Made by a program: the position numbers and the translations under genes. Of a DNA stretch of 64,000 bases, positions 36,889-56,652 are shown piece by piece (positions within the stretch are counted from its first letter, which is position 1; each line of letters starts with the position of its first letter). The stretch comes from Actinomycetota bacterium (lineage in GTDB: Bacteria; Actinomycetota; Actinomycetes; Propionibacteriales; Nocardioidaceae). Below the pieces are notes generated by a model. It saw only the letters and a list, made by a program, of their open reading frames with translations, was not told the DNA's origin and searched no databases. Location: assembly GCA_046735295.1 (NCBI GenBank), contig JBKPTA010000006.1, forward strand, positions 26,074 through 90,073, read 5' to 3'.

Positions 36889-37701
36889 TCAGCCGAGGAA
36901 CCGGCGTACGGCGAGCGCGAGCCCGCGCGCGTACGTCGCCCGGCCCGCCCTCGACGTCATCCGGCGGGCGTCACGCCGATCCCGCATGTTGCCGAGCTCG
37001 ACCATGACGGTCGGGATGTCCGAGAGGTTCAGGGTCGCCAGGTCCGACCGGAAGTCCAGCCCGTCGCCCCCGGCGATGTAGTTGGCCACCCGCAGCCCGA
37101 CGACCCGCAGTGCGGCACGGGTCGTCACGGCGAGGCGGCGCGAGGAGCGGTAGATGTCGTGGGTCCACGGGCGACGGTCCGTCGGGGCGATCACGTGGAA
37201 GCCACGCGCGCCCGGCGCATAGGACCCGTCGCCATGGATGCTGATCTTGAGGTCCGCCGGCAGGCGGTTGCCGTCGCGCCCGCGTACGTCGACGCACGGG
37301 CCCCATCGGTCCTGCCGGTTGGAGTGCCGGGTCATCCGCACGCTCGCACCGAGCCGCTCCAGGCGCTGTCGCAGCAGCCGGGCGACCTGCCAGGTGAACG
37401 TCGCCTCCGGGTAGCCGCCGTTCGTCGCCGTGCCGGTCGTGTTGCACGGCTTCTCGAACCCGCCCGCCGGCACCAGCTGGTCGATCTTGCCCAGGAAGTT
37501 GTGGTTGCCCAGCTGGTGACCGGGGTCGATCACGACCGTGCGCCCGGCCAGCGGCATGCTCGTGCCGCCCTCGTCCTGGCCCGAGGTGAGCCGGAAGTCG
37601 CGGGTGGCGTCCGCCGGCACGGCGAGACCGAGCACCATCGCCGCAGGCACGATTGCGGCCGCGACCAGCCCGGCATACCGGTGTCTGCACAGCTGGGTCA
37701 T
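36889..37701 (-). CDS. N-acetylmuramoyl-L-alanine amidase (Amidase_3)
   Basis: After a signal peptide it reads ...VVIDPGHQLGN...ISIHGDG...MVELGNMRD. Confidence 0.85.
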   Translation of the reverse strand: MTQLCRHRYAGLVAAAIVPAAMVLGLAVPADATRDFRLTSGQDEGGTSMPLAGRTVVIDPGHQLGNHNFLGKIDQLVPAGGFEKPCNTTGTATNGGYPEATFTWQVARLLRQRLERLGASVRMTRHSNRQDRWGPCVDVRGRDGNRLPADLKISIHGDGSYAPGARGFHVIAPTDRRPWTHDIYRSSRRLAVTTRAALRVVGLRVANYIAGGDGLDFRSDLATLNLSDIPTVMVELGNMRDRRDARRMTSRAGRATYARGLALAVRRFLG

Positions 37702-38702
37702 TCGTACCCCAGCACCTCGAACCGCTTCTCGGCCCAGGCCAGGGCCGAGGCGATGGCCTCGTCGAGCGACAGCTCCGTCTCCCAGCGCAGGAGATCGCGT
37801 GCGCGGTCGACGTTCGCATACGCGCCGACGGCATCCCCCGGCCGCGGCGGAGCCTCCGAGACGGGTAGCGGTCGCCCGATCACCCGCTCGAAGGCCGCCA
37901 CCAGCTCGCGCACCGTGACCCCGTCACCGCGACCGACGTTGACCACGACACTGGGCGCACCGACGGTCGCGAGCACCTCGTCGAAGCTCTCCACGGCGCG
38001 CACGTGCGCCACGGCGAGGTCCCAGACGTGGAGGTAGTCGCGCACCCCCGTTCCGTCTCGGGTGGGCAGGTCGGTGCCCGTGATGGTGAACCCGTCCCGC
38101 TGGCCGCGTGCCGCCATCACCAGCTGGCCGAGGACGTGGGACGGCTCCTTGGCGTAGACGCCGCTCTCGAGGTCGGGGTCGGAACCGATGGGGTTGAAGT
38201 ACCGCAGCATGATCGCCCGGAGATCGGTGGCCGCCGCCATGTCCTCGAGGACCTGCTCGATCATCCACTTCGTGCGGGCGTACGGCGAGGTCGGCTCGAG
38301 CGGGTCGTCCTCGGAGACCTCGAAGCTGTCCTTCACGGCGTACACGGAGGCCGATGACGAGAACACGATCCGCGGCTTTCCGAGCTGCTCGAGCTGGTCG
38401 AAGAGCTCCAGCGACTTCGCCACGTTGTCCCGGTAGTACTCGTACGGCTTCTCGACCGACTCGGGGACGACGATCCGTGCAGCCATGTGGATGGTGGCGT
38501 CGAGGTCGGGGTGGTCCTCGACGACACGACGCACGAGCTCGCGGTCACCGATGTCTCCCTCGTAGAAGATCCGGTCGCGGACGAACGCCTGAGGGCCGGT
38601 CAGCAACGAGTCGAGCACGATCGGCACGTGGCCGGCGGACTCGAGGGCCTTGGCCGTCGTGGAGCCGATGTAGCCGGCCCCGCCGGTGACCAGGATCTTC
38701 AT
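37698..38702 (-). CDS. galE: UDP-glucose 4-epimerase
   Basis: MKILVTGGAGYIGSTTAKAL..., ...SSSASVY..., ...YARTK.... Its stop overlaps the amidase start. Confidence 0.9.
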   Translation of the reverse strand: MKILVTGGAGYIGSTTAKALESAGHVPIVLDSLLTGPQAFVRDRIFYEGDIGDRELVRRVVEDHPDLDATIHMAARIVVPESVEKPYEYYRDNVAKSLELFDQLEQLGKPRIVFSSSASVYAVKDSFEVSEDDPLEPTSPYARTKWMIEQVLEDMAAATDLRAIMLRYFNPIGSDPDLESGVYAKEPSHVLGQLVMAARGQRDGFTITGTDLPTRDGTGVRDYLHVWDLAVAHVRAVESFDEVLATVGAPSVVVNVGRGDGVTVRELVAAFERVIGRPLPVSEAPPRPGDAVGAYANVDRARDLLRWETELSLDEAIASALAWAEKRFEVLGYE

Positions 38703-38875
38703 GCCCGCCAGGGTAACCAAGGTCGTCGGCACGCCCGGCACCTCCGGCGCCCGCTCGGCAGGAAGGCGTGCAAAGCATCCGGCGAACGCTTCCCGCTGTC
38801 CGGTCCGGCCCCTAGACTCTCACCTAGCTCGGGGGAGGAGCGCTGAGGCGCTCTTGGGCTGCGCTGGGGGATTCC

Positions 38876-40369
38876 ATGGGCATCGCGCCTGAACTCACGT
38901 TCGTGCGCTCGATTGCGTCTCAGCGCGCCCCGAGCCGTGCGCTCCGGGCGCTGCCGCTGACCGCCCTGCTCCTGGACCTCCTGCTCGTCACGTCCACGGT
39001 GCTGCTCGCGGCGTTCGGTCGGAGCCGGATCGTGCACTTCGGGTCGGGGAGCCCGGCGCTCTCTCAGTCGGTGTCGGGTCCCAGCCTGTCCCAGGGGGTC
39101 GCGCTGGTCGCCGTCCCTCTCGTGATCGGCTGGATCGGGCTGATCGCCCTCCGCGGCGGTTACGACCGGGGCATCTTCGGCGCCGGCGCCGACGAGTACA
39201 AGGCCGTCGTGAACGCCAGCCTGCTGACGGCGGCGCTGCTCGGGATCGGGTGCTACCTGCTCAAGCTGCCTCTCTCCCGTGGGTTCTTCGTCTTCGCCTT
39301 CCTGATCGGCCCCGTCCTGCTGGCGGCCGGCCGCCACCTGCTGCGGCGCTCCCTGCACCGCGCGCGTCGCCACGGCGCCCTGGGCCAGCGCACCATCGTC
39401 GTGGGCGGCGAGGACCACGTCGACGCCGTCGCGGGCGTCCTCGCCCGCGAGACGTGGCTGGGGTACGACGTCCTGGGCGCCCTGGTCCCCGCCGGAAGCA
39501 CAGTGGAGACCGAGGGCGGGATCCAGGTACTCGGTGGCGTCGACGAGGCCGCGGCGGTGGTCCGTGCCTACGAGGCCGACGTCGTGTTCGTCGTGGGGGG
39601 TGCCTTCGACGCTCCCCTCGCGATGCGCAACCTGGTCTGGGACCTGGAGTCCGACAACGTCCAGGTCATCATGGCTCCTGGTGTCACCGACGTCTCGAGC
39701 GAGCGCATCCGCGTCCGTCCCGTGGCCGGGCTCCCGTTGCTCCATCTCGACCGGCCGCGCTCACAGGACGCCCTCCGCTGGGCCAAGCGCACGTTCGACG
39801 TCCTCGGGTCGGCCACCCTGCTCGCGTTCGCCTCTCCGCTGATCGTGTGGACCGCGTGGCAGATCAAGCGCCATGACGGGGGCCCGGTGCTCTTCCGCCA
39901 GACGCGCGTGGGGCGTGACGGCAGCTTCTTCACCTGTCTGAAGTTCCGCAGCATGGTTCTCGACGCCGAGAACTCGCTGACCGAGCTCCACAGCGAGGTG
40001 GGCTACGACGGCGGCCTGTTCAAGATGCAGCGCGACCCGCGCATCACCGGGCCGGGTCATTGGATCCGCCGGTACTCGATCGACGAGCTGCCCCAGCTGC
40101 TCAACGTGCTCCGAGGCGACATGAGCCTGGTCGGGCCACGGCCGCCGCTGCCGCTGGAGGTCGACCGCTACACGTTGATGCAGTCGCGCAGGCTCCGTGT
40201 GCGTCCCGGCCTGACCGGCCTCTGGCAGGTGTCCGGCCGCTCCGACCTGTCGTGGACCGAGTCGATCCGGCTCGACCTCTACTACGTCGACAACTGGTCG
40301 ATGATCCAGGACCTGGTGATCCTGGCCCGCACGGTGGTTGCTGTCCTGGGCTCCCGTGGCGCCTACTGA
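38876..40369 (+). CDS. polyprenyl-phosphate glycosyl-1-phosphate transferase (WbaP/EpsB-type priming sugar transferase)
   Basis: N-terminal TM helices and a linker are followed by the C-terminal bacterial sugar-transferase domain (...KFRSM...DPRIT..G.WIRRYSIDELPQLLNVLRGDMSLVGPRP...). Confidence 0.85.
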   Translation: MGIAPELTFVRSIASQRAPSRALRALPLTALLLDLLLVTSTVLLAAFGRSRIVHFGSGSPALSQSVSGPSLSQGVALVAVPLVIGWIGLIALRGGYDRGIFGAGADEYKAVVNASLLTAALLGIGCYLLKLPLSRGFFVFAFLIGPVLLAAGRHLLRRSLHRARRHGALGQRTIVVGGEDHVDAVAGVLARETWLGYDVLGALVPAGSTVETEGGIQVLGGVDEAAAVVRAYEADVVFVVGGAFDAPLAMRNLVWDLESDNVQVIMAPGVTDVSSERIRVRPVAGLPLLHLDRPRSQDALRWAKRTFDVLGSATLLAFASPLIVWTAWQIKRHDGGPVLFRQTRVGRDGSFFTCLKFRSMVLDAENSLTELHSEVGYDGGLFKMQRDPRITGPGHWIRRYSIDELPQLLNVLRGDMSLVGPRPPLPLEVDRYTLMQSRRLRVRPGLTGLWQVSGRSDLSWTESIRLDLYYVDNWSMIQDLVILARTVVAVLGSRGAY

Positions 40370-40510
40370 GACCGAGCAGGAGCGTGCGAGTAACGAGCAC
40401 GGTCCGTGGGCGAGGGAAGGTTGAGCGAGCCCACGGCTGAGCCTGCGAAGCCGTGCCGGGCGAGTCGGAACCGCGTGCCGGCGCCTGGCGCATCGACAGC
40501 CTGCTCCCGA

Positions 40511-40590
40511 CAGGCTCGACCGACACTGTCGCTCGACCGACACTGTGGTCTCGACGAGCTCGACCGACGCCGACGCTCGACCGACGATCT
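40511..40590. repeat. 17-18-bp tandem repeat with GTCGGTCGAG core (locus B, inverted orientation, 4 cores)
   Basis: CTCGACCGAC occurs at 40515, 40532, 40559 and 40576, and GTGGTCTCGAC (the reverse complement of GTCGAGACCAC) at 40545-40555. It sits between the convergent sugar transferase and rmlA. Confidence 0.7.
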
Positions 40591-40599
40591 GGTGGCGCG

Positions 40600-42518
<1,919 letters not shown>

Positions 42519-42525
42519 CAGGGCT

Positions 42526-43923
42526 GTGAGCTCCCCCGACATCGAGACGACCCCGATTCCGGGTCTGCTCGTCCTCAGGCTCGACCTGCGGCGCGACGAG
42601 CGCGGCTGGTTCGAGGAGATGTGGCAGCGCGAGCGGATGATCGCCCTCGGCCTCCCGGACTTCGGACCCGTGCAGGCGAACGTCGCCTGGAACGACGCGC
42701 GCGGAACCACCCGGGGGATGCACGCCGAGCCGTGGGACAAGCTGGTCACGGTCACCGCTGGCCGCGCGTACGGCGCCTGGGTCGACCTGCGCGCCGGCGA
42801 CGGGTTCGGCACGACGTTCGGCATCGACCTCGAGCCGGGGGTTGCCGTCTTCGTGCCGCGCGGTGTCGGCAACGGGTACCAGACGACGGCCGACGCGACG
42901 GCGTACTCCTACTTGGTCAACGACCACTGGCGCCCGGACACCGGCTACGCCGCCGTCGACCATGCCGACCCGGACCTGGCGATCGGCTGGCCAGTGCCGT
43001 CCGCGGAACGCGTGTTGTCAGACCGCGACCGCTCGGCTCGCCCGTTGTCCGACGTCGAGCCGATCCCGGTCCGGACGCCGTTGGTCATCGGCGCGCAGGG
43101 CCAGGTCGGGCGGGCTCTGCTGACGGCGTTCCCGGGCGCCCGCGGGGTCACCCGGACAGAGCTCGACCTGAGCGACCTCGACCAGCTGGAGCGGTGGCCC
43201 TGGCGCGAGCACGACGTCGTGCTCAACGCAGCGGCGTACACGGCCGTCGACGGCGCGGAGACGGCCGAGGGCCGTCGTACGGCGTGGGCGGTGAACGCGG
43301 CCGGACCGGCCGCGCTGGCAGGACTCGCCGTGCGGCACGGCTTCACGCTCGTCCACCTGTCCTCCGACTACGTCTACGACGGCACCGTCGCCGAGCACGT
43401 GGAGGACGAGCCGCCCGCGCCGCTCGGCGTGTACGGGCAGAGCAAGGCCGCCGGGGACCTCGCGGTCACCGCTGTTCCGCGCCACTACGTGGTGCGGACG
43501 GCGTGGGTGGTCGGCGACGGTGGGAACTTCGTCCGCACGATGGCCCGGCTCGCGGACGAGGGTGGGTCGCCGTCGGTCGTCACCGACCAGGTGGGCCGGT
43601 TGGCCTTCGCCGACGAGATCGCCCGCGCCACCCGTCACCTGGTGGCGGCTTCGGCGCCGTACGGCACCTACCACGTCAGCAACAGCGGGCCGCCGACCTC
43701 GTGGGCCGACGTGGCGCGCGAGATCTTCTCCCTGCGGGGACGTGACCCCGCCGACGTCACGCCGGTGACGAGCGCTGAGTACGCCGCGGGTCGAGCCGTC
43801 GCGCCACGGCCGGCCAGCAGCGTGCTGTCGCTGGACAAGCTGGTCTCGACGGGCTTCGAGCCCCTCGACGCCGGCGAGGCGTTGCGTGCCTACGTGGCGA
43901 CGCTGCCAGCGTCACGCCCGTAG
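42526..43923 (+). CDS. fused dTDP-4-dehydrorhamnose 3,5-epimerase / dTDP-4-dehydrorhamnose reductase
   Basis: The N-terminal half is RmlC-like (IPGLLVLRLDLRRDERGWFEEMW...TTRGMHAEPWDKLVTV...FVPRGVGNGY). The C-terminal half is RmlD-like (LVIGAQGQVGRAL...NAAAYTAVDGAE...SSDYVYDG...YGQSKAAGD). Confidence 0.85.
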   Translation: MSSPDIETTPIPGLLVLRLDLRRDERGWFEEMWQRERMIALGLPDFGPVQANVAWNDARGTTRGMHAEPWDKLVTVTAGRAYGAWVDLRAGDGFGTTFGIDLEPGVAVFVPRGVGNGYQTTADATAYSYLVNDHWRPDTGYAAVDHADPDLAIGWPVPSAERVLSDRDRSARPLSDVEPIPVRTPLVIGAQGQVGRALLTAFPGARGVTRTELDLSDLDQLERWPWREHDVVLNAAAYTAVDGAETAEGRRTAWAVNAAGPAALAGLAVRHGFTLVHLSSDYVYDGTVAEHVEDEPPAPLGVYGQSKAAGDLAVTAVPRHYVVRTAWVVGDGGNFVRTMARLADEGGSPSVVTDQVGRLAFADEIARATRHLVAASAPYGTYHVSNSGPPTSWADVAREIFSLRGRDPADVTPVTSAEYAAGRAVAPRPASSVLSLDKLVSTGFEPLDAGEALRAYVATLPASRP

Positions 43924-48221: not shown

Positions 48222-50015
48222 ATGCCCGGCTGGCAGGATGGGCTCGTGCCGACGCCCCAACACTGCCCGTCGCCGCGGGAGCTGGCCGACCTCGAGCTCC
48301 TCACTGGCGGAGCCCTGGCGCCGCTCTCCGGCTTCAACGAGCCGGGTTCCCCGGTGACCCTGGACCTGCCTGAGGAGCTGGCGGGCCAGGAGGTCGAGCT
48401 GGTCGACCCGGAGGGGCTGCCCCTGGCCACACTGAGGCCCGACGGGTCCGTCGTGGCGTTGACCCACGCCCAGCACGGGCCCTTCCGCCGGCTCCACCTC
48501 ACCCCGGCCCAGACCCGCGAGCGTCACGCGGGCGCGACGTTCGTGCCGGTGGTGGACGCGCTGACGGAGGCGGAGCTCGAGCGCTTGCGATCGGTCGGCG
48601 GGCCGTTGGTCCTTCTGGCGCTCACCGGACCCGGCACCCCCGACCTCTCGCCGGTGGCACTGCTCCGGGCCTCGCTCGCCGCGGCGCGGCACCTCCCCGA
48701 CGCGTCCGTGGTCGCCGTACCGCTGGCCGCGCACGGCGATCCCGAGACCGACCACGAGCTCGGGCTGCGCGTCGTCGCGGCGTACGCCGGGCCCGACAGG
48801 GTGCTCGCCCTGGGGGACGCCGAGGGCGACTATCCCGACGACGTCGCGGCGATCGTCGACGCCGACCAGCCGACACCGGAACGTCGTGGGCTGGTGCTGT
48901 TCTTCACCGGTCTCTCCGGCAGTGGCAAGTCCACCGTCGCCCAGGCTGTGATCGACGCCCTCCTCGAGGCCGGGGAGCGCTCGGTGACCAGCCTGGACGG
49001 CGATGTCGTGCGCCGGCACCTGTCGGCGGGGCTCGGCTTCAGCCGCGAGGACCGCGAGACCAACATCCGCCGCATCGGCTGGGTCGCCGCCGAGATCTCC
49101 CGGCACGGCGGGGTCGCGGTCTGCAGCCCGATCGCACCGTTCGACACCACCCGGCAGGACGTCCGCGCGATGACGGAGACCGCAGGCGGTGCGTTCTTCC
49201 TCGTGCACGTCGCCACCCCGCTCGAGGAGTGCGAGCGGCGCGACCGCAAGGGCCTCTACGCGAAGGCCAGGCGCGGGGAGATCCCCGACTTCACCGGCAT
49301 CTCCTCGCCGTATGAGGAGCCGGCGGACGCCGACGTCCGGATGGACACGACGGGGCGCTCGGTCGAGGACTGTCGGGACGAGGTCCTCGCCGCGTTGGGC
49401 AAGGCCGGCTTCATCTCCGCCGGCGAGCCCCCGACCGGAGCCGCGGACGAGGACCCCATCCGGGTGCTGTTCGTATGCACGGCCAACATCTGCCGGTCGC
49501 CGTACCTGGAGCTCCGAGCGCGGCAGCTCCTGGGCGATGACGCCGGGGTGGAGGTCAGCAGCGCCGGGACGCGCGGGTTCGACGCTGAGCCGGTCAGCGA
49601 CACCATGGACCTCGAGTTCGCCCGGTTCGGCACCGACACGGCTGCCTTCCGCAGCCGACTGGTGACCGGCGCCCTGATCGACGAGGCCGACCTGGTGCTC
49701 ACCGCCGAGGCGTCGCACCGAGCCCGTCTGCTCGAGGAGCGCCCCACGGCCTTCCGCAAGACCTTCACGCTCGGGCAGTTCGTGGCGAGCGCCCAGGCGG
49801 TCGACCCGTCGCTCCGGGGGCGGGACCTGATCACGGCACTGAAGAGCCGGCGGGTGCCGGCCTCCCCCGACCACGACATCGCCGATCCCTATCGGCGCGG
49901 CCCCGAGGAGGCCCGGCGTGCCGCGGTCACCATGGAGGCCATGCTGGAGGTCCTGGTGGAGCGACTGCGCCGGATCCCCCAGGTCGGGGATTCCCCTGAC
50001 CCCGTGACACAGTAG
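48222..50015 (+). CDS. cysC: three-domain fusion: degenerate ATP-sulfurylase-like domain / adenylyl-sulfate (APS) kinase / low-molecular-weight protein-tyrosine phosphatase
   Basis: The N-terminus has ELADLELLTGGALAPLSGF (PUA-like sulfurylase N-domain) but lacks the QTRNPxHRxH and GRDHAG motifs. The middle is LVLFFTGLSGSGKSTVAQAV...LDGDVVR...FSREDRETNIRRIGWVAAE (CysC). The C-terminus is IRVLFVCTANICRSPYLE...DIADPYRRG (CX5R(S/T) P-loop plus DPY). The start is ATG 48222 or GTG 48246. Confidence 0.8.
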   Translation: MPGWQDGLVPTPQHCPSPRELADLELLTGGALAPLSGFNEPGSPVTLDLPEELAGQEVELVDPEGLPLATLRPDGSVVALTHAQHGPFRRLHLTPAQTRERHAGATFVPVVDALTEAELERLRSVGGPLVLLALTGPGTPDLSPVALLRASLAAARHLPDASVVAVPLAAHGDPETDHELGLRVVAAYAGPDRVLALGDAEGDYPDDVAAIVDADQPTPERRGLVLFFTGLSGSGKSTVAQAVIDALLEAGERSVTSLDGDVVRRHLSAGLGFSREDRETNIRRIGWVAAEISRHGGVAVCSPIAPFDTTRQDVRAMTETAGGAFFLVHVATPLEECERRDRKGLYAKARRGEIPDFTGISSPYEEPADADVRMDTTGRSVEDCRDEVLAALGKAGFISAGEPPTGAADEDPIRVLFVCTANICRSPYLELRARQLLGDDAGVEVSSAGTRGFDAEPVSDTMDLEFARFGTDTAAFRSRLVTGALIDEADLVLTAEASHRARLLEERPTAFRKTFTLGQFVASAQAVDPSLRGRDLITALKSRRVPASPDHDIADPYRRGPEEARRAAVTMEAMLEVLVERLRRIPQVGDSPDPVTQ

Positions 50016-50021
50016 ATCTCT

Positions 50022-50053
50022 CTTGCCCGACCTTCTCTGGAAGGACCGCGCCC
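50022..50053 (+). promoter_or_regulatory. conserved 32-nt leader, copy 1 (hairpin CCTTC-tctg-GAAGG overlapping the SD)
   Basis: cttgcccgaccttctCtggaaggaccgcgccc lies immediately 5' of the tauE-1 ATG. It matches copy 2 at 31 of 32 positions, and the single difference is in the loop. Confidence 0.4.
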
Positions 50054-51094
50054 ATGGGCAGCTGGCTCACGGCTGACGCCGCGTCGATCGTCGTCGCCGG
50101 CTTCCTCGTGGGCATCGTGGTCGGACTGACCGGGATGGGCGGCGGTGCGCTGATGACGCCCGCGCTGATCTTCCTCGGCGTGGGGGACGCGTCGGCGGTG
50201 GTCACCGCCGACCTCACCGCGGCCGCCATCTCGCGGACCGCGGGCGCCGCCACCCACGCGCGACACGGCTCGCCCAACATGGTGCTCGCCAAGTGGCTGA
50301 TCGTGGGGTCGGTGCCGGCCGCCCTGATCGGGCCCTGGCTCATCCACGGGATCGCGGGAGGCGACCACGACGCCGTCGACCGGCTCCTCATGGAGTGCAT
50401 CGGGTTCGCTCTGCTCTTCGCGGCCACAACGTACGCACTGCGGATCTATCTCAACCTGCGGCGTAGCAACGACGAGAGCGCACACGCCGACCCCGATCCG
50501 CCGATCCGCCCGCTGCTCACGCTGACCGTCGGGGCCCTCGGTGGTCTGCTCGTCGGCATCACCAGCGTCGGCGCGGGGTCGGTGATCATGGTCGCGCTGC
50601 TGACGCTCTACCCCGGGCTCTCCCCGGTGAAGCTGGTCGGCACCGATCTGGTGCAGGCGGTTCCTCTCGTCCTGGCTGCGGCCACGTCGAACATCGTGAT
50701 CCACGGGCTGGACTGGCACATCCTGCTCCCGCTCGTCCTGGGGTCCACGCCGGGCACCGTGCTCGGCTCTCGGCTCGCGCCGAAGGTCCCGCAGTCCTTC
50801 ATCCGGCGCGGCATCGTCGTGGTGCTGACGATGTCGGGCGTCGCGCTCCTGGACAAGTCCGGATGGGCTCCACTCGGCTCCGGCAAGGACGACACCCATC
50901 CGCTGCTGGTAGGCGTGGTCGGCCTTGCCATGGTCGTGCTCGTCCCGCTGGTCTGGGGCCTGATCCGGCGTACCGAGGGCCTCCCGATGTTCGGCGCCCC
51001 GACGGTGGCCCAGCTCGAGGGCGACAACTCGGGGCGTCATGCGCCGACACCCGCTTTCGAAGACCCCTCACGCGACGAGTCCCAGGTCACCTGA
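50054..51094 (+). CDS. TauE/SafE-family (DUF81) anion exporter, paralog 1
   Basis: VVGLTGMGGGALMTPALIFLG and the second-half repeat LLVGITSVGAGSVIMVALL are present. The protein is 346 aa with an extra C-terminal TM helix and tail. Confidence 0.85.
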   Translation: MGSWLTADAASIVVAGFLVGIVVGLTGMGGGALMTPALIFLGVGDASAVVTADLTAAAISRTAGAATHARHGSPNMVLAKWLIVGSVPAALIGPWLIHGIAGGDHDAVDRLLMECIGFALLFAATTYALRIYLNLRRSNDESAHADPDPPIRPLLTLTVGALGGLLVGITSVGAGSVIMVALLTLYPGLSPVKLVGTDLVQAVPLVLAAATSNIVIHGLDWHILLPLVLGSTPGTVLGSRLAPKVPQSFIRRGIVVVLTMSGVALLDKSGWAPLGSGKDDTHPLLVGVVGLAMVVLVPLVWGLIRRTEGLPMFGAPTVAQLEGDNSGRHAPTPAFEDPSRDESQVT

Positions 51095-51135
51095 CGCCGC
51101 CCCTCCCCAGGATGGGGGGTCCTCGGCGCGTCATC

Positions 51136-51163
51136 TCGACAAACTCGTTTCATTCAGTAGAAT
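51136..51163 (+). promoter_or_regulatory. candidate sigma-A-type promoter for tauE paralog 2
   Basis: TCGACA, a 16-nt spacer and TAGAAT lie in a conspicuously AT-rich 40-nt island (caaactcgtttcattcagtagaattaagtg). This places a TSS near the start of the conserved leader. Confidence 0.35.
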
Positions 51164-51170
51164 TAAGTGT

Positions 51171-51202
51171 CTTGCCCGACCTTCTGTGGAAGGACCGCGC
51201 CC
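51171..51202 (+). promoter_or_regulatory. conserved 32-nt leader, copy 2
   Basis: cttgcccgaccttctGtggaaggaccgcgccc lies immediately 5' of the tauE-2 ATG. Confidence 0.4.
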
Positions 51203-52243
51203 ATGGGTGACTGGCTCACTGCTGACTTCTACTCGATCATCGTCGCTGCGTTCTGTGTCGGCACGGTCGTCGGACTGACCGGGATGGGGGGAGGCGCCCT
51301 GATGACGCCGGCCCTGATCTTCCTGGGCGTCGGCGACGCCTCCACGGTGGTGACCGCCGACCTCACCGCCTCCGCGATCTACAAGACCGGTGGGGCAGTG
51401 ACCCACGCCCGCGAGGGCAAGCCCAACTGGGAGCTGGCCCGGTGGCTGGTCCTCGGCTCGGTTCCGTTCGCTCTTGCCGGACCCTGGGTGATCCATCGGA
51501 TCGCCGGGTCGGGCGACGACCTCGACACGCTCCTGAAGCTGTGCATCGGGTTCGCGCTGCTGTTCGCAGCGTCGACGTACGCCCTCCGCCTGGTGATCAA
51601 CCTGCACCGCTCGCGGCGCGGCGGCGCGACGCCGGACCCCGACCCCAGGATCCGGCCCCTCGTCACGGTCGCCGTCGGCGCGCTCGGTGGCCTGCTGGTC
51701 GGCATCACCAGCGTCGGGTCCGGGTCGGTGATCATGATCGCGCTGGTCATGCTCTACCCCGGCCTCTCGCCCCTGCGGCTGGTCGGCACGGACCTGGTCC
51801 AGGCCGTTCCGCTCGTGGCAGCAGCGGCGATCTCGAACATCGCCCTGAACGGGCTCGACTGGCACCTCCTGGTGCCGCTGCTGCTCGGCTCCGTGCCGGG
51901 CTCGATCCTCGGGAGCCACATCGCCCCCCGGGTTCGGCAGTCCTACATCCGTCGTGGGATCGTGATCGTGCTCACCATGTCTGGCCTCGCCCTGCTCGAC
52001 AAGGCGGGCTGGGCGCCGTTGGGCGCGGGCGACGACCAGACCCACCCGGAGCTCGTCGCCCTGGTCGGGCTCGTGATGGTGGCCGTGCTGCCGTTCATCT
52101 GGGGGCTGATCCGCAGGGCGGAGGGCCTGCCCATGTTCGGGTCGCCGACGGTGGCCGAGCTCGAGGGTGAGCCGCTGCCGGAGCCGGCGCCGGCGCCGAC
52201 CGAGTCACCCGTCGTCAGTCACGATCAGGCCCAGGTCCCGTAG
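51203..52243 (+). CDS. TauE/SafE-family (DUF81) anion exporter, paralog 2
   Basis: It has the same length (346 aa) and architecture as paralog 1 and is clearly homologous along its full length, with many synonymous and non-synonymous differences. Confidence 0.85.
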   Translation: MGDWLTADFYSIIVAAFCVGTVVGLTGMGGGALMTPALIFLGVGDASTVVTADLTASAIYKTGGAVTHAREGKPNWELARWLVLGSVPFALAGPWVIHRIAGSGDDLDTLLKLCIGFALLFAASTYALRLVINLHRSRRGGATPDPDPRIRPLVTVAVGALGGLLVGITSVGSGSVIMIALVMLYPGLSPLRLVGTDLVQAVPLVAAAAISNIALNGLDWHLLVPLLLGSVPGSILGSHIAPRVRQSYIRRGIVIVLTMSGLALLDKAGWAPLGAGDDQTHPELVALVGLVMVAVLPFIWGLIRRAEGLPMFGSPTVAELEGEPLPEPAPAPTESPVVSHDQAQVP

Positions 52244-52455
52244 GCGGGCGGTGAGCTGACGGACATCGGCGGCGACCACGTCGACGGAGACCTCGAAGGC
52301 CTCGGCGAGATCGGCGACGATCTCGGACTCGGTTCGATCGCCGTCGACGCAGGCTCCGACCTGGGCCCTGGGCCCTCGACGACGTACGGCGGCCGCTCGG
52401 GGTGGTCGAGATCGAGAACCACCGCACGCTCCGGGGGAGGCGACGTAGGCTGCAC
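52205..52455 (-). pseudogene. PqqD-family (RRE-type peptide chaperone)-like gene, reading frame broken once
   Basis: The C-terminal frame reads ...CVDGDRTESEIVADLAEAFEVSVDVVAADVRQLTARLRDLGLIVTDDG, a PqqD-like three-helix region. A different upstream frame reads VQPTSPPPERAVVLDLDHPERPPYVVEG, PqqD-like beta-strands. The frames meet at the duplicated heptamer 52361-52374. Confidence 0.5.
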
Positions 52456-52598
52456 ACGGAGTCCGGCGCCAGACCGTCGATCCGGCGCCCGGTCCGGCAC
52501 CCCGGCTCGCGGTCTCGGCCACGCGCCGAGTTTAGGCGGGGGCGCATCCGCCGTTAGCATGTTCGCTGCTGTTCCCACCGAGAGGCACCCACACCCAG

Positions 52599-53522
52599 AT
52601 GACGTCCGCTCCAGCGACCCATGCCGACTACCAGCTGAGCCAGCTCGACCAGCTCGAGGCGGAGTCGGTCCACATCTTCCGTGAGGCCGCGGCCGAGTTC
52701 GAGAAGCCGGCCCTGATGTTCTCCGGCGGCAAGGACTCCATCGTCATGCTGCGCCTGGCCGAGAAGGCTTTCTTCCCCGCGAAGATCCCCTTCCCCCTGG
52801 TGCAGATCGACACCGGCCTGGACTTCCCCGAGGTCATCGAGAACCGCGACCACTGGGTGAACCGGCTGGGCGTCCGGCTCGTGATCGCGAGCATCGACGA
52901 GGCCATCCAGAACGGCGTGGTCGTCGACGACGGCAAGACCAGCCGCAACCGGCTGCAGACCGGCACGCTCCTGAACTGCATCGAGGAGAACGGCTTCACC
53001 GCGATGTTCGGCGGCGGTCGTCGCGACGAGGAGAAGGCCCGCGCCAAGGAACGCGTCTACTCCCACCGCGACGACTTCGGCCAGTGGGACCCCAAGAACC
53101 AGCGTCCCGAGCTGTGGAACCTCTACAACGGCAAGCTCCACGGCGGCGAGCACATGCGGGTCTTCCCCCTGTCGAACTGGACCGAGCTCGACATCTGGCA
53201 CTACCTCCGGCAGGAGGGTGTGGACCTGCCGTCGATCTACTTCGCCCACCAGCGACGCGTGTTCAAGCGTGACGGCATGTGGATGACGGAGAGCCCCCTG
53301 AACCCGCGCAAGCAGGGTGAGGAGGTCGTCGAGAGGACCGTGCGCTACCGCACCGTCGGCGACCTGACCCTGACCGGCGCGGTGGAGTCCGACGCGGACA
53401 CCATCGAGAAGATCATCGACGAGATCGCCATCGCCCGCGTCACCGAGCGCGGAGCGACCCGTGGCGACGACCGGTTCTCCGAGGCCGCCATGGAGGACCG
53501 GAAGAAGGAAGGCTACTTCTGA
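52599..53522 (+). CDS. cysD: sulfate adenylyltransferase subunit 2
   Basis: LMFSGGKDSIVMLRLA (PP-loop) ...RVFPLSNWTELDIWHY... Confidence 0.95.
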   Translation: MTSAPATHADYQLSQLDQLEAESVHIFREAAAEFEKPALMFSGGKDSIVMLRLAEKAFFPAKIPFPLVQIDTGLDFPEVIENRDHWVNRLGVRLVIASIDEAIQNGVVVDDGKTSRNRLQTGTLLNCIEENGFTAMFGGGRRDEEKARAKERVYSHRDDFGQWDPKNQRPELWNLYNGKLHGGEHMRVFPLSNWTELDIWHYLRQEGVDLPSIYFAHQRRVFKRDGMWMTESPLNPRKQGEEVVERTVRYRTVGDLTLTGAVESDADTIEKIIDEIAIARVTERGATRGDDRFSEAAMEDRKKEGYF

Positions 53523-54820
53523 TGCCCGAGCTGTCCTCCGTGATGGAGAAGCACCCCGGACGACCGCCGATGGACCTACTGCGGTTCGCGACCGCGGGGT
53601 CGGTCGACGACGGCAAGTCCACGCTGATCGGGCGCCTGCTGCTCGACTCCAAGTCGATCTTCGAGGACCAGCTGGAGGCCGTCGAGGCCACCAGCCACTC
53701 CCGCGGCTACGACTACACGGACCTGGCCCTGCTCACCGACGGCCTGCGCTCGGAGCGCGAGCAGGGCATCACCATCGACGTGGCCTACCGCTACTTCGCG
53801 ACGCCGACCCGCAAGTTCATCATCGCCGACACCCCCGGGCACATCCAGTACACCCGGAACATGGTGACCGGCGCCTCCACCGCCGACCTCGGCCTGGTGC
53901 TCGTCGACGCCCGGCACGGCCTGACCGAGCAGAGCCGTCGTCACGCCGTGCTGCTGTCGCTCCTCCGGGTGCCCCACCTGGTGCTGGCCATCAACAAGAT
54001 GGACCTCGTCGACTGGTCGGAGGAGACCTACGAGCGGATCCACGCGGAGTTCACCCAGTTCGCGACGAAGCTGTCGATCCCGGACCTCGAGGTCATCCCG
54101 ATCTCCGCACTCAAGGGTGACAACGTCGTGACCAGGTCAGAGAACACACCCTGGTACCACGGCCCGACCCTGATGCATCACCTGGAGCACGTCCACGTCG
54201 CCTCCGACCGCGACCTGGTCGACACCCGCTTCCCGGTGCAGTACGTCGTACGCCCGAAGAGCGACGAGTTCCACGACTACCGCGGGTACGCCGGACAGGT
54301 CGCCGGCGGCGTCCTCAAGAAGGGCGACGAGGTGATCGTCCTGCCCAGCGGGATGACCTCGACGATCGAGGGCATCGACCTGTTCGACCAGGAGATCAAC
54401 GAGGCGTTCCCGCCGATGTCGGTCACCGTGCGGCTCGCCGACGACGTCGACGTGAGCCGCGGCGACCTGATCGCCCGGGTCAAGAACGCCCCGAAGCCGA
54501 GCCAGGACATCGACGCGATGCTCTGCTGGATGACCACCGAGCCACTCCGTCCGCGCCAGAAGCTCGCGATCAAGCACACGACCCGGATGGGTCGCGCCCT
54601 GGTCAAGGACATCCAGTACCGCCTCGACGTGAACTCGCTGCACCGTGACCAGGACACCAAGGAGCTGGGCCTCAACGAGATCGGCCGCGTACAGCTGCGC
54701 ACCACCGTGCCGCTGCTGTGCGACCCCTACTCGAAGAACCGCACCACGGGCTCCTTCATCCTCATCGACGAGGCCACCGGGGTCACCGTCGGCGCGGGCA
54801 TGATCAACTCCGGCGCCTGA
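53522..54820 (+). CDS. cysN: sulfate adenylyltransferase subunit 1 (GTPase), without a fused APS-kinase domain
   Basis: LLRFATAGSVDDGKSTLIGRLL, DTPGHIQYTRNM and NKMD are present. At 432 aa it ends after the EF-Tu-like domains. Confidence 0.95.
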   Translation: MPELSSVMEKHPGRPPMDLLRFATAGSVDDGKSTLIGRLLLDSKSIFEDQLEAVEATSHSRGYDYTDLALLTDGLRSEREQGITIDVAYRYFATPTRKFIIADTPGHIQYTRNMVTGASTADLGLVLVDARHGLTEQSRRHAVLLSLLRVPHLVLAINKMDLVDWSEETYERIHAEFTQFATKLSIPDLEVIPISALKGDNVVTRSENTPWYHGPTLMHHLEHVHVASDRDLVDTRFPVQYVVRPKSDEFHDYRGYAGQVAGGVLKKGDEVIVLPSGMTSTIEGIDLFDQEINEAFPPMSVTVRLADDVDVSRGDLIARVKNAPKPSQDIDAMLCWMTTEPLRPRQKLAIKHTTRMGRALVKDIQYRLDVNSLHRDQDTKELGLNEIGRVQLRTTVPLLCDPYSKNRTTGSFILIDEATGVTVGAGMINSGA

Positions 54821-54824
54821 CCCC

Positions 54825-54934
54825 GTTGAGTTGGCCCTCCGGGCGCGTTGAGTTGGCCCTCCCGGCCCGTTGAGTTGGCCTTCCGGGCGCGTTGAGTTGG
54901 CCCTCCCGGCCCGTTGAGTTGGCCTTCCGGGCCC
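54825..54934. repeat. 5 x 22-bp head-to-tail tandem repeat (GTTGAGTTGGCC[C/T]TCC[G/C]GGC[G/C]C)
   Basis: Units start at 54825, 54847, 54869, 54891 and 54913, an exact 22-nt period. Units 2 and 4 are identical. The array begins 4 nt after the cysN stop. Confidence 0.95.
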
Positions 54935-54965
54935 AGGTCCACACCGCAAGAGCCAAGTGAACGAG

Positions 54966-54984
54966 CCCGGAGGGCCAACTCAAC
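54966..54984. repeat. single inverted copy of the 22-bp unit (CCCGGAGGGCCAACTCAAC)
   Basis: It is the perfect reverse complement of the first 19 nt of unit 1. It can pair with any of the five direct units. Confidence 0.9.
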
Positions 54985-55098
54985 AGGTCAGCCGAGCTTC
55001 CAGAGCTTCCAGACGGACGCGCGGCGGATCACCTACTCTGGAACATCGCACCCCGGGGGGTCCAGGAACCCGCGAGACCGCTCGGGGAGGAGCCGTTC

Positions 55099-56652
55099 AT
55101 GGAACTCAAGGACTACGTCCGCATGGTGCTGTCGCACTGGGCGGGCGTCGTGCTCCTCGCCGTGCTCGGGGTGGTCGCCGGCGTCGGCTTCAACGCCGCG
55201 CAGCCGGAGGTCTACCAGGCCAGCGCCCACCGGTCTGGTCACGGTCGGCAAGACCACCAGCACCTCCGACGCGACCGTCGGTGACGCCCTCGCCAAGAAC
55301 CGCGTGACGTCGTACGTCTCGCTCGCCACGACCACCGAGGTGGCCGACCTCGTGATCGCCGGCGGCGACCTGCAGGGCACCGACCTCCCGACCTCGGCGG
55401 GGGCTCTGGTCGGTCACGTCAGCGTGGAGCAGCCGCTCGACACCGTGTTGATCACCATCAACGCGCGGGCCTCGGACCCGGCGTACGCCGCCACCCTCGC
55501 CAACGCCTGGGTCAAGGCGCTGGCCGAGATGGTCAAGCAGATCGACGGCCCGAAGAAGGCTGCCGGCGGGGCCGGCACCGACTCGACCGCCGAACCCCCG
55601 CAGGGCTCCACATGGTGCCGCTGACCCAGGCTGCCCCGGCCTCGCTGGTCCTCCCCCGCAAGAACCTCAACCTCGTGATCGGTCTGCTGCTCGGAGTTCT
55701 GCTCGGCTTCGGGTACGCGCTGGTGCGCCACCAGTTCGACCGCCGCCTGCGCTCGTCGGGCGCCGTGGAGAGGGAGTTCGGGATCCCGGTGATCGGAATG
55801 ATCCCCCGGTCGTCGCACGTGCGGCACTCCGATGGCCGGGAGCTCGCCCTGGCCGTCACCGGATCGCCCTCGGCGAGCACCGCCAGCACCGCCGAGGGCT
55901 TCCGCAAGCTGCGTACCAACCTCGCGTACGTGGACGTCGACCAGCCGCCCCGGGTGATCGTCGTGACGAGCCCGAAGCCGTCCGACGGCAAGTCGACCGT
56001 CGCAGCCAACCTCGCGGCGGCGATCGCGATCGGTGGCCAGGCGGTGACGTTGATCGACTGCGACCTGCGACGTCCGACGGTGGCCGACTCGCTCGCGATC
56101 GTCGACGGCGCCGGTCTGACCGACGTCCTCGTCGGCCGGGTGACGCCGGCCGAGGTCATGCAGGACCACCCCGACGTACCCGGCCTCCGGGTCCTGGCGT
56201 CCGGCGCGATCCCGCCCAACCCGAGCGAGCTCCTCGGCTCGAAGGCGATGCACTCGCTGATCACCGACCTGGCGCGCGCCGCCATGGTGATCATCGACGC
56301 GCCGCCGCTGCTCCCGGTCACCGACGCCGCCGTCCTCACCCGTTCTGCAGACGGCGCCATCCTCGTCATCACCCACGCCGGCACGCTCGACAGCGAGCTC
56401 GCCGCCTCGCTGAGCCACATCGCCGCCCTGCACAGGCGCACGCTCGGCACCATGTTCAACCGGATGCGCCGCGGCGCGTCGAGCGGGTTCTACGGCGGCG
56501 ACCACCACCGCTACGAGTACGCGCCGGACACCCGCCGCCGGGGGAAGCGGAAGCCGGGTCGGCAGCGATCACGCGGCGCCGACGAGGGCAGGGCGCCGAA
56601 GCCGGCGAACCAGGGCGGCCACGAGCCAGAGCCGAGCACCGCCGCGCACTGA
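55099..56652 (+). pseudogene. Wzz-domain polysaccharide co-polymerase / BY-type protein-tyrosine autokinase, frame interrupted twice
   Basis: Frame 1 (55099-) reads MELKDYVRMVLSHWAGVVLLAVLGVVAGVGFNAAQPEVYQAS. Frame 2 (about 55229-55599) reads TGLVTVGKTTSTSD...VTSYVSLATT...VLITINARASDPAYAATLANAW. Frame 1 resumes (55612-) with VPLTQAAP...PRKNLNLVIGLLLG...VVTSPKPSDGKST (Walker A), LIDCDLRRP (A'), VIIDAPPLLPVTDA (B) and the tail [11 protein letters not shown]. Confidence 0.75.

Follow-up and report, generated by a model that had tools for sequence, protein, structure and literature searches.

Introduction

Sulfate activation in Mycobacterium tuberculosis relies on CysD and a CysN-CysC fusion, with APS as the branch point between CysH, an APS-type reductase, and PAPS, which serves sulfation only, through the Stf sulfotransferases. 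The Nocardioides locus described here shares CysDN, a CysH of the APS-reductase type and the use of PAPS for sulfation only, but its CysC is separate from CysN and belongs to another gene, which also carries sulfurylase-like (Sat-like) and phosphatase (PTP) domains, and the sulfotransferases of the genome are of a polysaccharide-cluster rather than a sulfolipid type. Another relative of the fusion protein is the hexameric APS kinase of Thiobacillus denitrificans (3CR8), which likewise consists of a sulfurylase-like N-domain without the sulfurylase motifs followed by an active APS kinase. This protein is the best PDB sequence match of the fusion (E 8.5e-65) and a top fold match over ~500 columns. 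The N-domain of the Nocardioides protein, at ~215 aa, is far shorter, an extra LMW-PTP is present at the C-terminus behind a variable linker, and only 3CR8 is known to be hexameric.

In polysaccharide assembly, phosphatases of the LMW-PTP class are paired with BY-kinases, as in Wzb-Wzc of Escherichia coli and in ywqCDEF of Bacillus subtilis, which includes the UGDH YwqF. The PTP domain of the Nocardioides fusion shares with these pairs the C-X5-R-S loop, the DP acid and structure matches to Wzb, AmsI and YwlE. In Nocardioides, by contrast, the phosphatase belongs to the same polypeptide as a PAPS-forming enzyme, the kinase gene is frameshifted and dephosphorylation is predicted.

The fpr2-cysIXHDNYZ cluster of Corynebacterium glutamicum (PMC1266029) also places a TSUP/TauE-family membrane protein next to cysDN. 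Growth on sulfate or sulfite requires this protein, CysZ (PMC1266029), which is the likely sulfate permease (PMC1266029, PMC5840216). The C. glutamicum cluster has no cysC, whereas the Nocardioides genome has two TauE paralogs, each extended at the C-terminus, and an ABC-type sulfate-binding protein. The co-occurrence of PAPS genes and sulfotransferases with Wzx/Wzy or export genes has been called a hallmark of the production of sulfated polysaccharides, such as the CPS of Vibrio sp. KMM 8419 (PMC11641403), and this combination within one organism is common to the Vibrio CPS, the synechan xss system (PMC8205485) and the genome studied here. The Vibrio cluster contains second cysDNC copies beside its sulfotransferases, in contrast with the single housekeeping cysDN and the sulfotransferases on other contigs in Nocardioides. 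Among bacteria, sulfated exopolysaccharides have been described as made 'uniquely' by cyanobacteria (PMC8205485). They are considered rare in bacteria and are sought as glycosaminoglycan-like materials.

The reading that we favor, with moderate confidence, is a two-purpose sulfate-activation locus that supplies both assimilation and the PAPS for a sulfated glycan, with PTP-linked control. CysDN would form APS, which would pass either to CysH on another contig for cysteine or to the APS kinase of the locus for PAPS; the roughly nine sulfotransferases of the genome would then most likely use PAPS to build a sulfated extracellular or cell-wall glycan. Read in this way, the locus and the sulfotransferase-rich Wzx/Wzy clusters predict sulfated envelope glycans in common soil Nocardioides.

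Organization of the locus

Six elements are contiguous at 48222-56652 of the window, the whole 64-kb stretch of DNA that was analysed: the fusion gene, the pair of TauE paralogs, a PqqD-like ORF, cysD, a short cysN and a Wzz/BY-kinase gene (Table 1). The initial annotation had described the same six elements and all lie where it had placed them, but two are damaged, namely the Wzz/BY-kinase gene, which is spread over three frames, and the PqqD-like gene, the middle of which is scrambled. The priming sugar transferase, galE and dTDP-rhamnose genes that it had reported nearby are all present at 37698-43923.

Table 1. Features of the sulfate-activation locus and nearby glycan genes
Feature	Position	Strand	Evidence or remark
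galE-like epimerase	37698-38819	-	nearby glycan gene
Priming Bac_transf	38828-40369		nearby glycan gene
rmlA, rmlB, rmlC-rmlD fusion	ending 43923		nearby glycan genes
Sat-like/APS-kinase/LMW-PTP fusion	48222-50015	+	597 aa
ATP-sulfurylase-like N-domain, residues 1-215	48222..48866	+	PUA-like plus partial Rossmann; fold match only
APS kinase (CysC), residues 216-400	48867..49421	+	PF01583 193 bits (cut-off 21); TIGR00455 189 bits (cut-off 139)
LMW-PTP domain	49449..50015	+	PF01451 (LMWPc) 55 bits (cut-off 23)
33-nt leader of tauE1	50021..50053	+	CCTTC-N4-GAAGG hairpin containing ribosome-binding site; direct sequence reading
tauE1, TSUP/TauE-SafE family anion permease	50054-51094	+	PF01925 141 bits (cut-off 33)
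Second 33-nt leader copy, before tauE2	51170..51202	+	differs from 50021..50053 by one loop base
tauE2, tandem paralog of tauE1	51203-52243	+	PF01925 153 bits (cut-off 33)
PqqD/RRE-like small gene	52205-52522	-	weak NCBIfam PqqD matches, below every curated cut-off
cysD, small subunit of sulfate adenylyltransferase	52599-53522	+	TIGR02039 421 bits (cut-off 397)
cysN, GTPase subunit	53522-54820	+	432 aa; TIGR02034 558 bits (cut-off 336)
Tandem repeats, five of 22 bp plus one inverted copy	54821..54990	.	cysN/BY-kinase interval; direct sequence reading
Wzz/BY-kinase gene	55099-56652	+	homology through three frames (three-frame translation)
BY-kinase TM1	55099-55281	+	starting frame
BY-kinase external domain	about 55229-55600	+	+1 frame
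BY-kinase TM2 plus kinase domain	55612-56652	+	

Sulfurylase-like and APS kinase domains

The N-terminal ~215 aa of the fusion are sulfurylase-like by fold only, with Foldseek matches to 1I2D, 3CR8 and 2GKS (490-546 columns, E ~1e-23) for a structure model that is a monomer and has a pLDDT of about 90 in this domain. The sulfurylase family PF01747 has no match anywhere in the genome, the fusion N-domain included (E <= 0.1). The catalytic motifs of sulfurylases are built around RNP and GRD, and neither QxRNPxHxxH nor GRDHAG is seen in residues 1-215 in an alignment of 30 orthologs, all of which keep the domain start RELxDLELLxxGALxP. The region is thus predicted to be a shortened, catalytically dead ATP-sulfurylase-like domain.

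The CysC domain passes the curated cut-offs of both APS kinase models. All 30 aligned orthologs keep the P-loop GLSGSGKST, LDGD and KGLYAKAR...FTGIS.PYE (KGLYAKARRGEI) without variation. The APS kinase structures 4BZP, 5CB8 and 2PEY match the domain with target-normalised TM-scores of 0.8-0.9, which indicates an APS kinase fold, and structural alignment with M. tuberculosis CysC (4BZP) gives 48% identity. The domain is the sole strong APS kinase match in the genome. As CysC is found in 92/99 good Nocardioidaceae genomes, it is a housekeeping-like gene and no marker of a special module.

Sulfate activation, assimilation and transport

The stop of cysD overlaps the start of cysN at 53522, and both genes are single-copy. 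The match of CysN to the CysNC model, which has 632 positions, is confined to positions 21-432, and CysN therefore has no CysC extension, as had been noted before. With no Sat-type sulfurylase in the genome by the PF01747 search, CysDN is its only sulfate-activating enzyme; deletion of the locus should therefore also give auxotrophy on sulfate. CysH is encoded on contig C22, adjoining sirA and sirB, and carries the APS-reductase motifs CC (DLCCALRKV), CxxC (SIGCAPCTR) and ECGIH, so assimilation does not need PAPS. The claim of the initial annotation that APS is reduced directly and PAPS is left for sulfation holds in this genome. Its claim of a dedicated sulfation module does not, since a block with the sole sulfate-activating enzyme serves assimilation as well as sulfation.

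These observations also bear on whether the block is simply an ordinary assimilatory operon in which CysDN, a sulfate permease pair and an accessory CysC supply cysteine and methionine, with the glycan and BY-kinase genes as chance neighbors in a variable region. Such an operon would account for the sole cysDN copy, for the family-wide conservation of the locus, for the housekeeping genes that border it (asparaginase, aminotransferase, BKACE and dtd) and for a BY-kinase that is broken and whose adjacency is not conserved. We nevertheless consider it unlikely. An APS-reductase-type CysH leaves CysC without an assimilatory role, the Wzb-type PTP accompanies CysC, as a fusion or as a neighbor, in many species, the operon frame holds glycan genes in 24 of 66 loci, and sulfotransferases occur in 23 of 24 genus genomes.

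The two TauE proteins are 71% identical, and both exceed the PF01925 cut-off. The ATG of tauE2 at 51203 corresponds to the tauE1 start, with a longer GTG ORF from 51167, and a promoter-like TCGACA-16-TAGAAT is present upstream at 51136-51163. In nearly all related loci, a tauE gene lies 3' of cysC, and the duplicate is confined to the closest clade. The pair had been taken for anion exporters; sulfate import is at least equally likely given C. glutamicum CysZ (PMC1266029, PMC5840216), and by this analogy the permeases would most likely serve the pathway as transmembrane carriers of sulfate or sulfite. They are not needed for sulfate uptake, since contig C9 encodes the sulfate-binding protein of an ABC importer.

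The phosphatase domain and the BY-kinase

The PTP domain contains C419 TANIC R425 S426 (CTANICRS, C-X5-R-S) and D555-P556 (DPY), which are invariant in 30 orthologs, and its PDB matches are YwlE, Wzb, AmsI and PtpA. About 35 of 80 species representatives have it covalently joined to CysC, and cultured species with this fusion include Pimelobacter simplex, N. ferulae and N. oceani; in L039, L052, L053 and G023, the PTP is a separate gene directly 3' of cysC. Of 13 free-standing homologs of the domain, 10 have a BY-kinase within 8 kb. Among genus genomes with a PTP-linked CysC, 10 of 11 have a BY-kinase, 8 of those on the same contig at a distance of 3-34 kb, and in the three complete genomes that lack a BY-kinase, CysC is PTP-less; related genomes are non-independent samples, and these co-occurrence counts are descriptive only. 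From its motifs and relatives, the fused domain is predicted to descend from Wzb-type phosphatases that pair with BY-kinases and to have phosphatase activity. It is not the sole candidate phosphatase, as the genome has two further LMWPc genes.

A BY-kinase gene lies 5 kb downstream of the PTP domain and is frame-broken. Frameshifts near 55226 and 55597, with a stop of the starting frame at 55282-55284, leave no continuous frame for TM1, the external domain, TM2 and the kinase. The kinase domain itself, with Walker A, A' and B, still passes the TIGR01007 cut-off (130 bits, cut-off 108 for 55612-56652). Both breaks are reproduced by independent metagenome contigs; one from X1 covers 54978-56136 without a single difference, and contigs from X2 cover 55427-55768. 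A genome-wide search found no second BY-kinase. Intact forms are present in L033 and G021, the closest relatives (L021-L032 and L039) have no BY-kinase after cysN, and the orthologous kinase of G012 lies away from the cys genes. Adjacency of the cys genes and the BY-kinase is thus not conserved, and the export arm under Wzz/BY-kinase control proposed earlier is not borne out for this locus. With two frameshifts in the gene, the control arm would be either degraded or left as a fragment of TM2 plus kinase.

The persistence of the fusion despite a broken sole BY-kinase, the covalent tie to CysC in so many species, and the presence of the fusion in G017, where a BY-kinase was not found in a genome that is 85% complete, would fit a PTP domain that acts in sulfur-nucleotide metabolism and not on a BY-kinase, for example by controlling CysC through the phosphorylation state of CysC, or by CysQ-like hydrolysis of the PAP/PAPS 3'-phosphate. 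The genome already has four IMPase/CysQ-family genes, however, the free-standing proteins most closely related to the domain adjoin BY-kinases, and CTANICRS with DPY is of the standard phosphotyrosine type, with the arsenate-reductase-type cysteines missing. A sulfur-nucleotide role is therefore distinctly improbable.

In the favored two-purpose locus, the CysC-PTP fusion probably ties the supply of PAPS to the control of polymer assembly by tyrosine phosphorylation, through co-expression and perhaps physical recruitment. By joining a PAPS-forming kinase to a Wzb-type phosphatase, the conserved fusion provides a concrete connection, open to testing, between the supply of the donor and the regulation of polymer assembly by tyrosine kinases. 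A stronger form, in which the fusion is a physical coupler that docks on the BY-kinase/co-polymerase complex, with PAPS made at the polysaccharide assembly site in response to tyrosine phosphorylation, seems doubtful to us. If true, elongation of the polymer would keep step with its sulfation in soil actinobacteria, for which, to our knowledge, no sulfated exopolysaccharides are known.

Sulfotransferases and synteny across Nocardioides

The initial annotation recognised no sulfotransferase in the window, which is confirmed for the full 64 kb, and let its proposal depend on the rest of the genome. About nine sulfotransferase genes (PF13469 and PF00685 matches) are present there: five on contig C94 and further genes on C60, C19, C7 and C8. 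Contig C94 combines the five with Wzy, Wzx, GT2, a priming transferase and a deacetylase, and the end of C60 holds Wzz, Wzx and one sulfotransferase. The PAPS genes (contig C6) and the sulfotransferases are on different contigs of a MAG of 95 contigs. Together, the PAPS operon, the PTP-fused kinase and the five-sulfotransferase polysaccharide cluster make a sulfated surface polymer likely on genomic grounds; the literature searched documents no sulfated polymer for Nocardioides.

The order xre, asparaginase, cysC, tauE ... cysDN is kept across Nocardioides, and glycan genes are found inside the cysC..cysN span in 24/66 loci and within 6 kb in 57/66. The genes inside or beside this frame encode UGDH, GMD, GT4, an intact BY-kinase and a sulfotransferase. 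UGDH, which is classically phosphorylated by BY-kinases, is often found close to the cys locus in relatives. L033 has an intact Wzz-BY-kinase among the glycan genes of its cys locus and L088 a sulfotransferase; PAPS genes and a sulfotransferase share a cluster in L088, L044 and L048, and BY-kinases adjoin sulfotransferases in G005, G010 and G019. Comparison across genomes thus supports the earlier proposal in that glycan genes and sulfotransferases are interleaved with cys genes and sulfotransferases occur in BY-kinase clusters, but not in the position of the BY-kinase. The sulfated envelope glycan that the initial annotation had derived from CysC and PAPS is likewise upheld in part: the APS-type CysH, the sulfotransferases and the glycan synteny favor it, but the locus is not dedicated and its BY-kinase is broken.

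PAPS might also be made mainly for sulfated lipids, peptides or small metabolites, which we consider very unlikely. The C7, C19 and C8 sulfotransferases lie outside obvious polysaccharide clusters, with neighbors that include a C39-like peptidase and a GDSL lipase, and a PqqD/RRE-like gene is present inside the locus. On the other hand, 6 of the about 9 sulfotransferases are in Wzx/Wzy-type clusters, the inserts in relatives are sugar-nucleotide and glycosyltransferase genes and not lipid or peptide genes, and the PqqD-like gene is scrambled here. Its best match reaches 23.8 bits against a cut-off of 46 (E 3e-5), and its central ~25 codons (ERAVVLDLDHPERPPYVVEG) are in another frame compared with the orthologs, which are intact in 9 close relatives. 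The gene is a decaying bystander, in line with its first description as a remnant.

In the interval between cysN and the BY-kinase gene, contig depth in the metagenome runs is very high at 54834-54900, which suggests a dispersed repeat.

Gene content and reading of the locus

The locus forms a dual-use operon that activates sulfate and makes PAPS, and it lies in an envelope-glycan region found throughout the genus. The ORF listing and profile scans match the six-element block described in the initial annotation, which was therefore correct in content and coordinates. Upstream of the block lie genes for a class-III aminotransferase, asparaginase II, an XRE regulator, a cupin, an rmlC-rmlD fusion (a single ORF with dTDP_sugar_isom and RmlD_sub_bind domains), rmlB, rmlA, a priming Bac_transf transferase and a galE-like epimerase; downstream are BKACE, dtd, rhodanese, DUF4395 and thioredoxin genes.

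Features of the locus and its surroundings (window positions)
Feature	Position	Strand	Remark
rmlC-rmlD fusion	42292-43923
Sat-like/CysC/LMW-PTP fusion	48222-50015		597 aa
tauE1 leader	50021-50053		33 nt
tauE1	50054-51094
Sigma-70-like site	51136-51163		TCGACA-16-TAGAAT
tauE2 leader	51170-51202		33 nt
tauE2	51203-52243
PqqD-like ORF	52205-52522	minus
cysD	52599-53522
cysN	53522-54820
22-bp tandem repeats	54821-54990		five copies and one inverted copy
Wzz/BY-kinase	55099-56652

The initial annotation had proposed a dedicated module for a sulfated envelope glycan or glycolipid, linked to tyrosine-kinase-controlled polysaccharide export. The sulfated glycan is supported at the level of the genome and of the genus. 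The other two attributes need correction for this genome. The module is not dedicated: assimilation cannot do without the block, since the genome has no other cysDN. As for tyrosine-kinase control, the BY-kinase is frame-broken, and none was seen directly 3' of cysN among the closest relatives. The genome itself (3.62 Mb, 95 contigs, 95.5% complete), in which the window occupies positions 26074-90073 of contig C6, is a Nocardioides by its relatives. It is probably a soil MAG, since the sequencing runs containing the stretch are soil metagenomes; runs X4 and X5, which cover just parts of it, at 90-95% likeness, are excluded from habitat and strain claims.

Sulfate activation and the use of PAPS

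The APS kinase is also present in one copy, and a genome profile search for a Sat-type sulfurylase found none, with zero PF01747 matches across the whole genome. Elsewhere in the genome, sirA-cysH-sirB is located on contig C22. CysH carries the CC pair, CxxC and ECGIH motifs, which are the mark of Fe-S APS reductases. Assimilation accordingly proceeds via APS without requiring CysC, and here the initial annotation is borne out. Contig C9 encodes a sulfate-binding protein scoring above the TIGR00971 cut-off, and the genome holds four IMPase/CysQ-family genes and two LMWPc genes beyond the fusion.

The absence of a sulfotransferase from the window had been the weak point of the sulfation proposal, and it is removed by a PF13469 and PF00685 search of the whole genome, which returned about nine sulfotransferase genes. 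A Wzx/Wzy cluster occupies contig C94 (29.6 kb) and encodes a polysaccharide deacetylase, Wzy, Wzx, five sulfotransferases (one weak), a GT2 and a priming transferase. The end of contig C60 (24600-29000; L106:6614-11021 in the fetched stretch) carries a second polysaccharide locus with Wzz, a Wzx flippase and a sulfotransferase, and may be contiguous with C94 in the chromosome itself. The remaining sulfotransferases are on C7, C19 and C8. Given this repertoire, including the C94 and C60 clusters, gene content points to a sulfated glycan as the most likely use of PAPS. Near the cys locus in relatives, no C94 genes turned up other than priming-transferase paralogs, and a literature search on sulfated Nocardioides polymers returned nothing relevant.

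The sulfotransferase-rich C94 (fetched stretches L101 and L102) also encodes PEP mutase (phosphonate chemistry), an HprK-like kinase and an APH-like kinase; its polymer may bear phosphonate and sulfate groups together. The C60 co-polymerase is Wzz-only, 571 aa long and without a kinase domain.

The fusion protein

The CysC-Wzb fusion is the most distinctive element of the locus; a literature search on CysC-LMW-PTP fusions returned nothing relevant. A canonical APS kinase occupies residues 216-400 (PF01583, 193 bits; TIGR00455, 189 bits), and the LMW-PTP residues 410-597 (PF01451, 55 bits). Residues 1-215 had no sulfurylase profile match in the profile scan, and neither of the sulfurylase family motifs QxRNPxHxxH and GRDHAG was seen in this N-domain. 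An AlphaFold model based on 30 orthologs (mean pLDDT 84) aligned over ∼500 columns (E ∼1e-23) with P. chrysogenum ATP sulfurylase (1I2D), T. denitrificans APS kinase (3CR8) and Aquifex Sat/APSK (2GKS); 3CR8 is also the top sequence match. In the alignment of the 30 orthologs, the kinase motifs are invariant, as are CTANICRS and DPY of the phosphatase domain, and the linker is hypervariable, rich in Pro, Ala and Glu, and 10 to ∼200 residues long. Assignment of the LMWPc domain as an arsenate reductase was rejected, as the P-loop pair are its sole cysteines and the DP acid is kept.

Conservation across Nocardioides

Mapping of 80 species-representative loci with the window's proteins revealed that the order xre, asparaginase, cysC, tauE ... 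cysD, cysN is kept across Nocardioides, usually with rml genes upstream. CysC has three domains in ∼35 of these loci and two in ∼40. The phosphatase is encoded by its own gene directly 3' of cysC in L039, L052, L053 and G023, which is the hallmark of a gene fusion. The interval between tauE and cysD, or the position just 3' of cysN, is variable in content and harbors genes for a GDP-mannose dehydratase (L034), UDP-glucose dehydrogenase (L038 and many others), GT4 glycosyltransferases (L045, L021), an intact 486-aa Wzz-BY-kinase (L033), DUF4012 (L083) or a sulfotransferase (L088). By tblastn, in which the GMD query also catches RmlB, 24 of 66 loci have such genes between cysC and cysN, and 57 of 66 have them no more than 6 kb away. 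Of 99 good-quality Nocardioidaceae genomes, 92 encode an APS kinase, a tally that includes eight unpublished genomes (G062, G068, G074, G079, G081, G091, G117, G189) on which no other claim rests. A UDP-glucose/GDP-mannose dehydrogenase recurs between tauE and cysD, or just 5' of cysD, in many Nocardioides among L034-L054 and L056-L078; the window has none at that position.

A survey of 24 same-genus genomes, whose counts are descriptive only because the genomes are related to one another, found a PTP fused or adjacent to CysC in 11. A BY-kinase is present in ten of these 11, in eight of them on the same contig and 3-34 kb away. The three complete genomes that have no BY-kinase (G009, G014, G018) carry a PTP-less CysC. 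Of 13 free-standing PTP-domain homologs, 10 have a BY-kinase within 8 kb (G003, G007, G016, G021, G025, G027, G029, G031, G035, G037). Sulfotransferases occur in 23 of the 24 genomes and adjoin BY-kinases in G005, G010 and G019.

Damage to the BY-kinase and PqqD-like genes

The genome has no BY-kinase besides the one in the block. Its homology begins in the frame of the ATG at 55099, shifts to +1 at about 55226 and reverts at about 55597; the starting frame runs into a stop at 55282-55284, and the ORF at 55612-56652 retains TM2 and the kinase domain, scoring above the TIGR01007 cut-off. Assembly artefacts were rejected as the main reading of these shifts. About 20 genes around the BY-kinase align end to end with those of relatives, so the assembly is not generally error-prone, and contigs from two samples are free of indels. 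A 1159-nt Logan contig from metagenome run X1 (54978-56136) and contigs from the second sample, X2 (55427-55768), have zero differences from the window, and the comparison lists no insertions or deletions; coverage of the first shift site comes from X1 only, and X1 may be the sample that yielded the MAG. The frame breaks thus appear to be real in the DNA.

The nearest BY-kinase ortholog, 72% identical and encoded in related genome G012, adjoins BKACE and dtd, and the 16 kb upstream of it contain no cys genes; in L039, cysN is followed directly by BKACE. An ancestral frameshift shared with G012 is unsupported, as the G012 shift lies a few codons off and BKACE, too, is broken in that assembly.

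Nine close relatives have an intact, well-conserved PqqD-like ORF. In the window it is open for 105 codons, with its central segment ERAVVLDLDHPERPPYVVEG in another frame relative to the nine orthologs, and is the second gene within this 5-kb stretch to carry paired compensating frameshifts.

The TauE pair, leaders and repeats

In C. glutamicum, growth on low sulfate and on sulfite requires CysZ, a TSUP-family protein of the cysIXHDNYZ cluster that has been proposed to be the sulfate permease (PMC1266029, PMC5840216). The TauE pair may, by analogy, be sulfate importers. The same leader, but for a single mismatch in the loop, stands before each of the tauE paralogs; its CCTTC-N4-GAAGG hairpin overlaps the GGAAGGA ribosome-binding site and may act as a translational control element. 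A promoter and terminator scan gave one sigma-70-like match in 9 kb, just 5' of the tauE2 leader, and nothing else useful; tauE2 may therefore have a promoter of its own. An Rfam scan of 44-60 kb (E ≤ 0.1) found no riboswitch; its only match, a miRNA-like hairpin within the tandem repeats, is spurious. These repeats, of exact period apart from the inverted copy, directly follow cysN; contig depth at 54834-54900 is ∼60x that of the flanks in the X1 metagenome, which suggests a dispersed repeat family.
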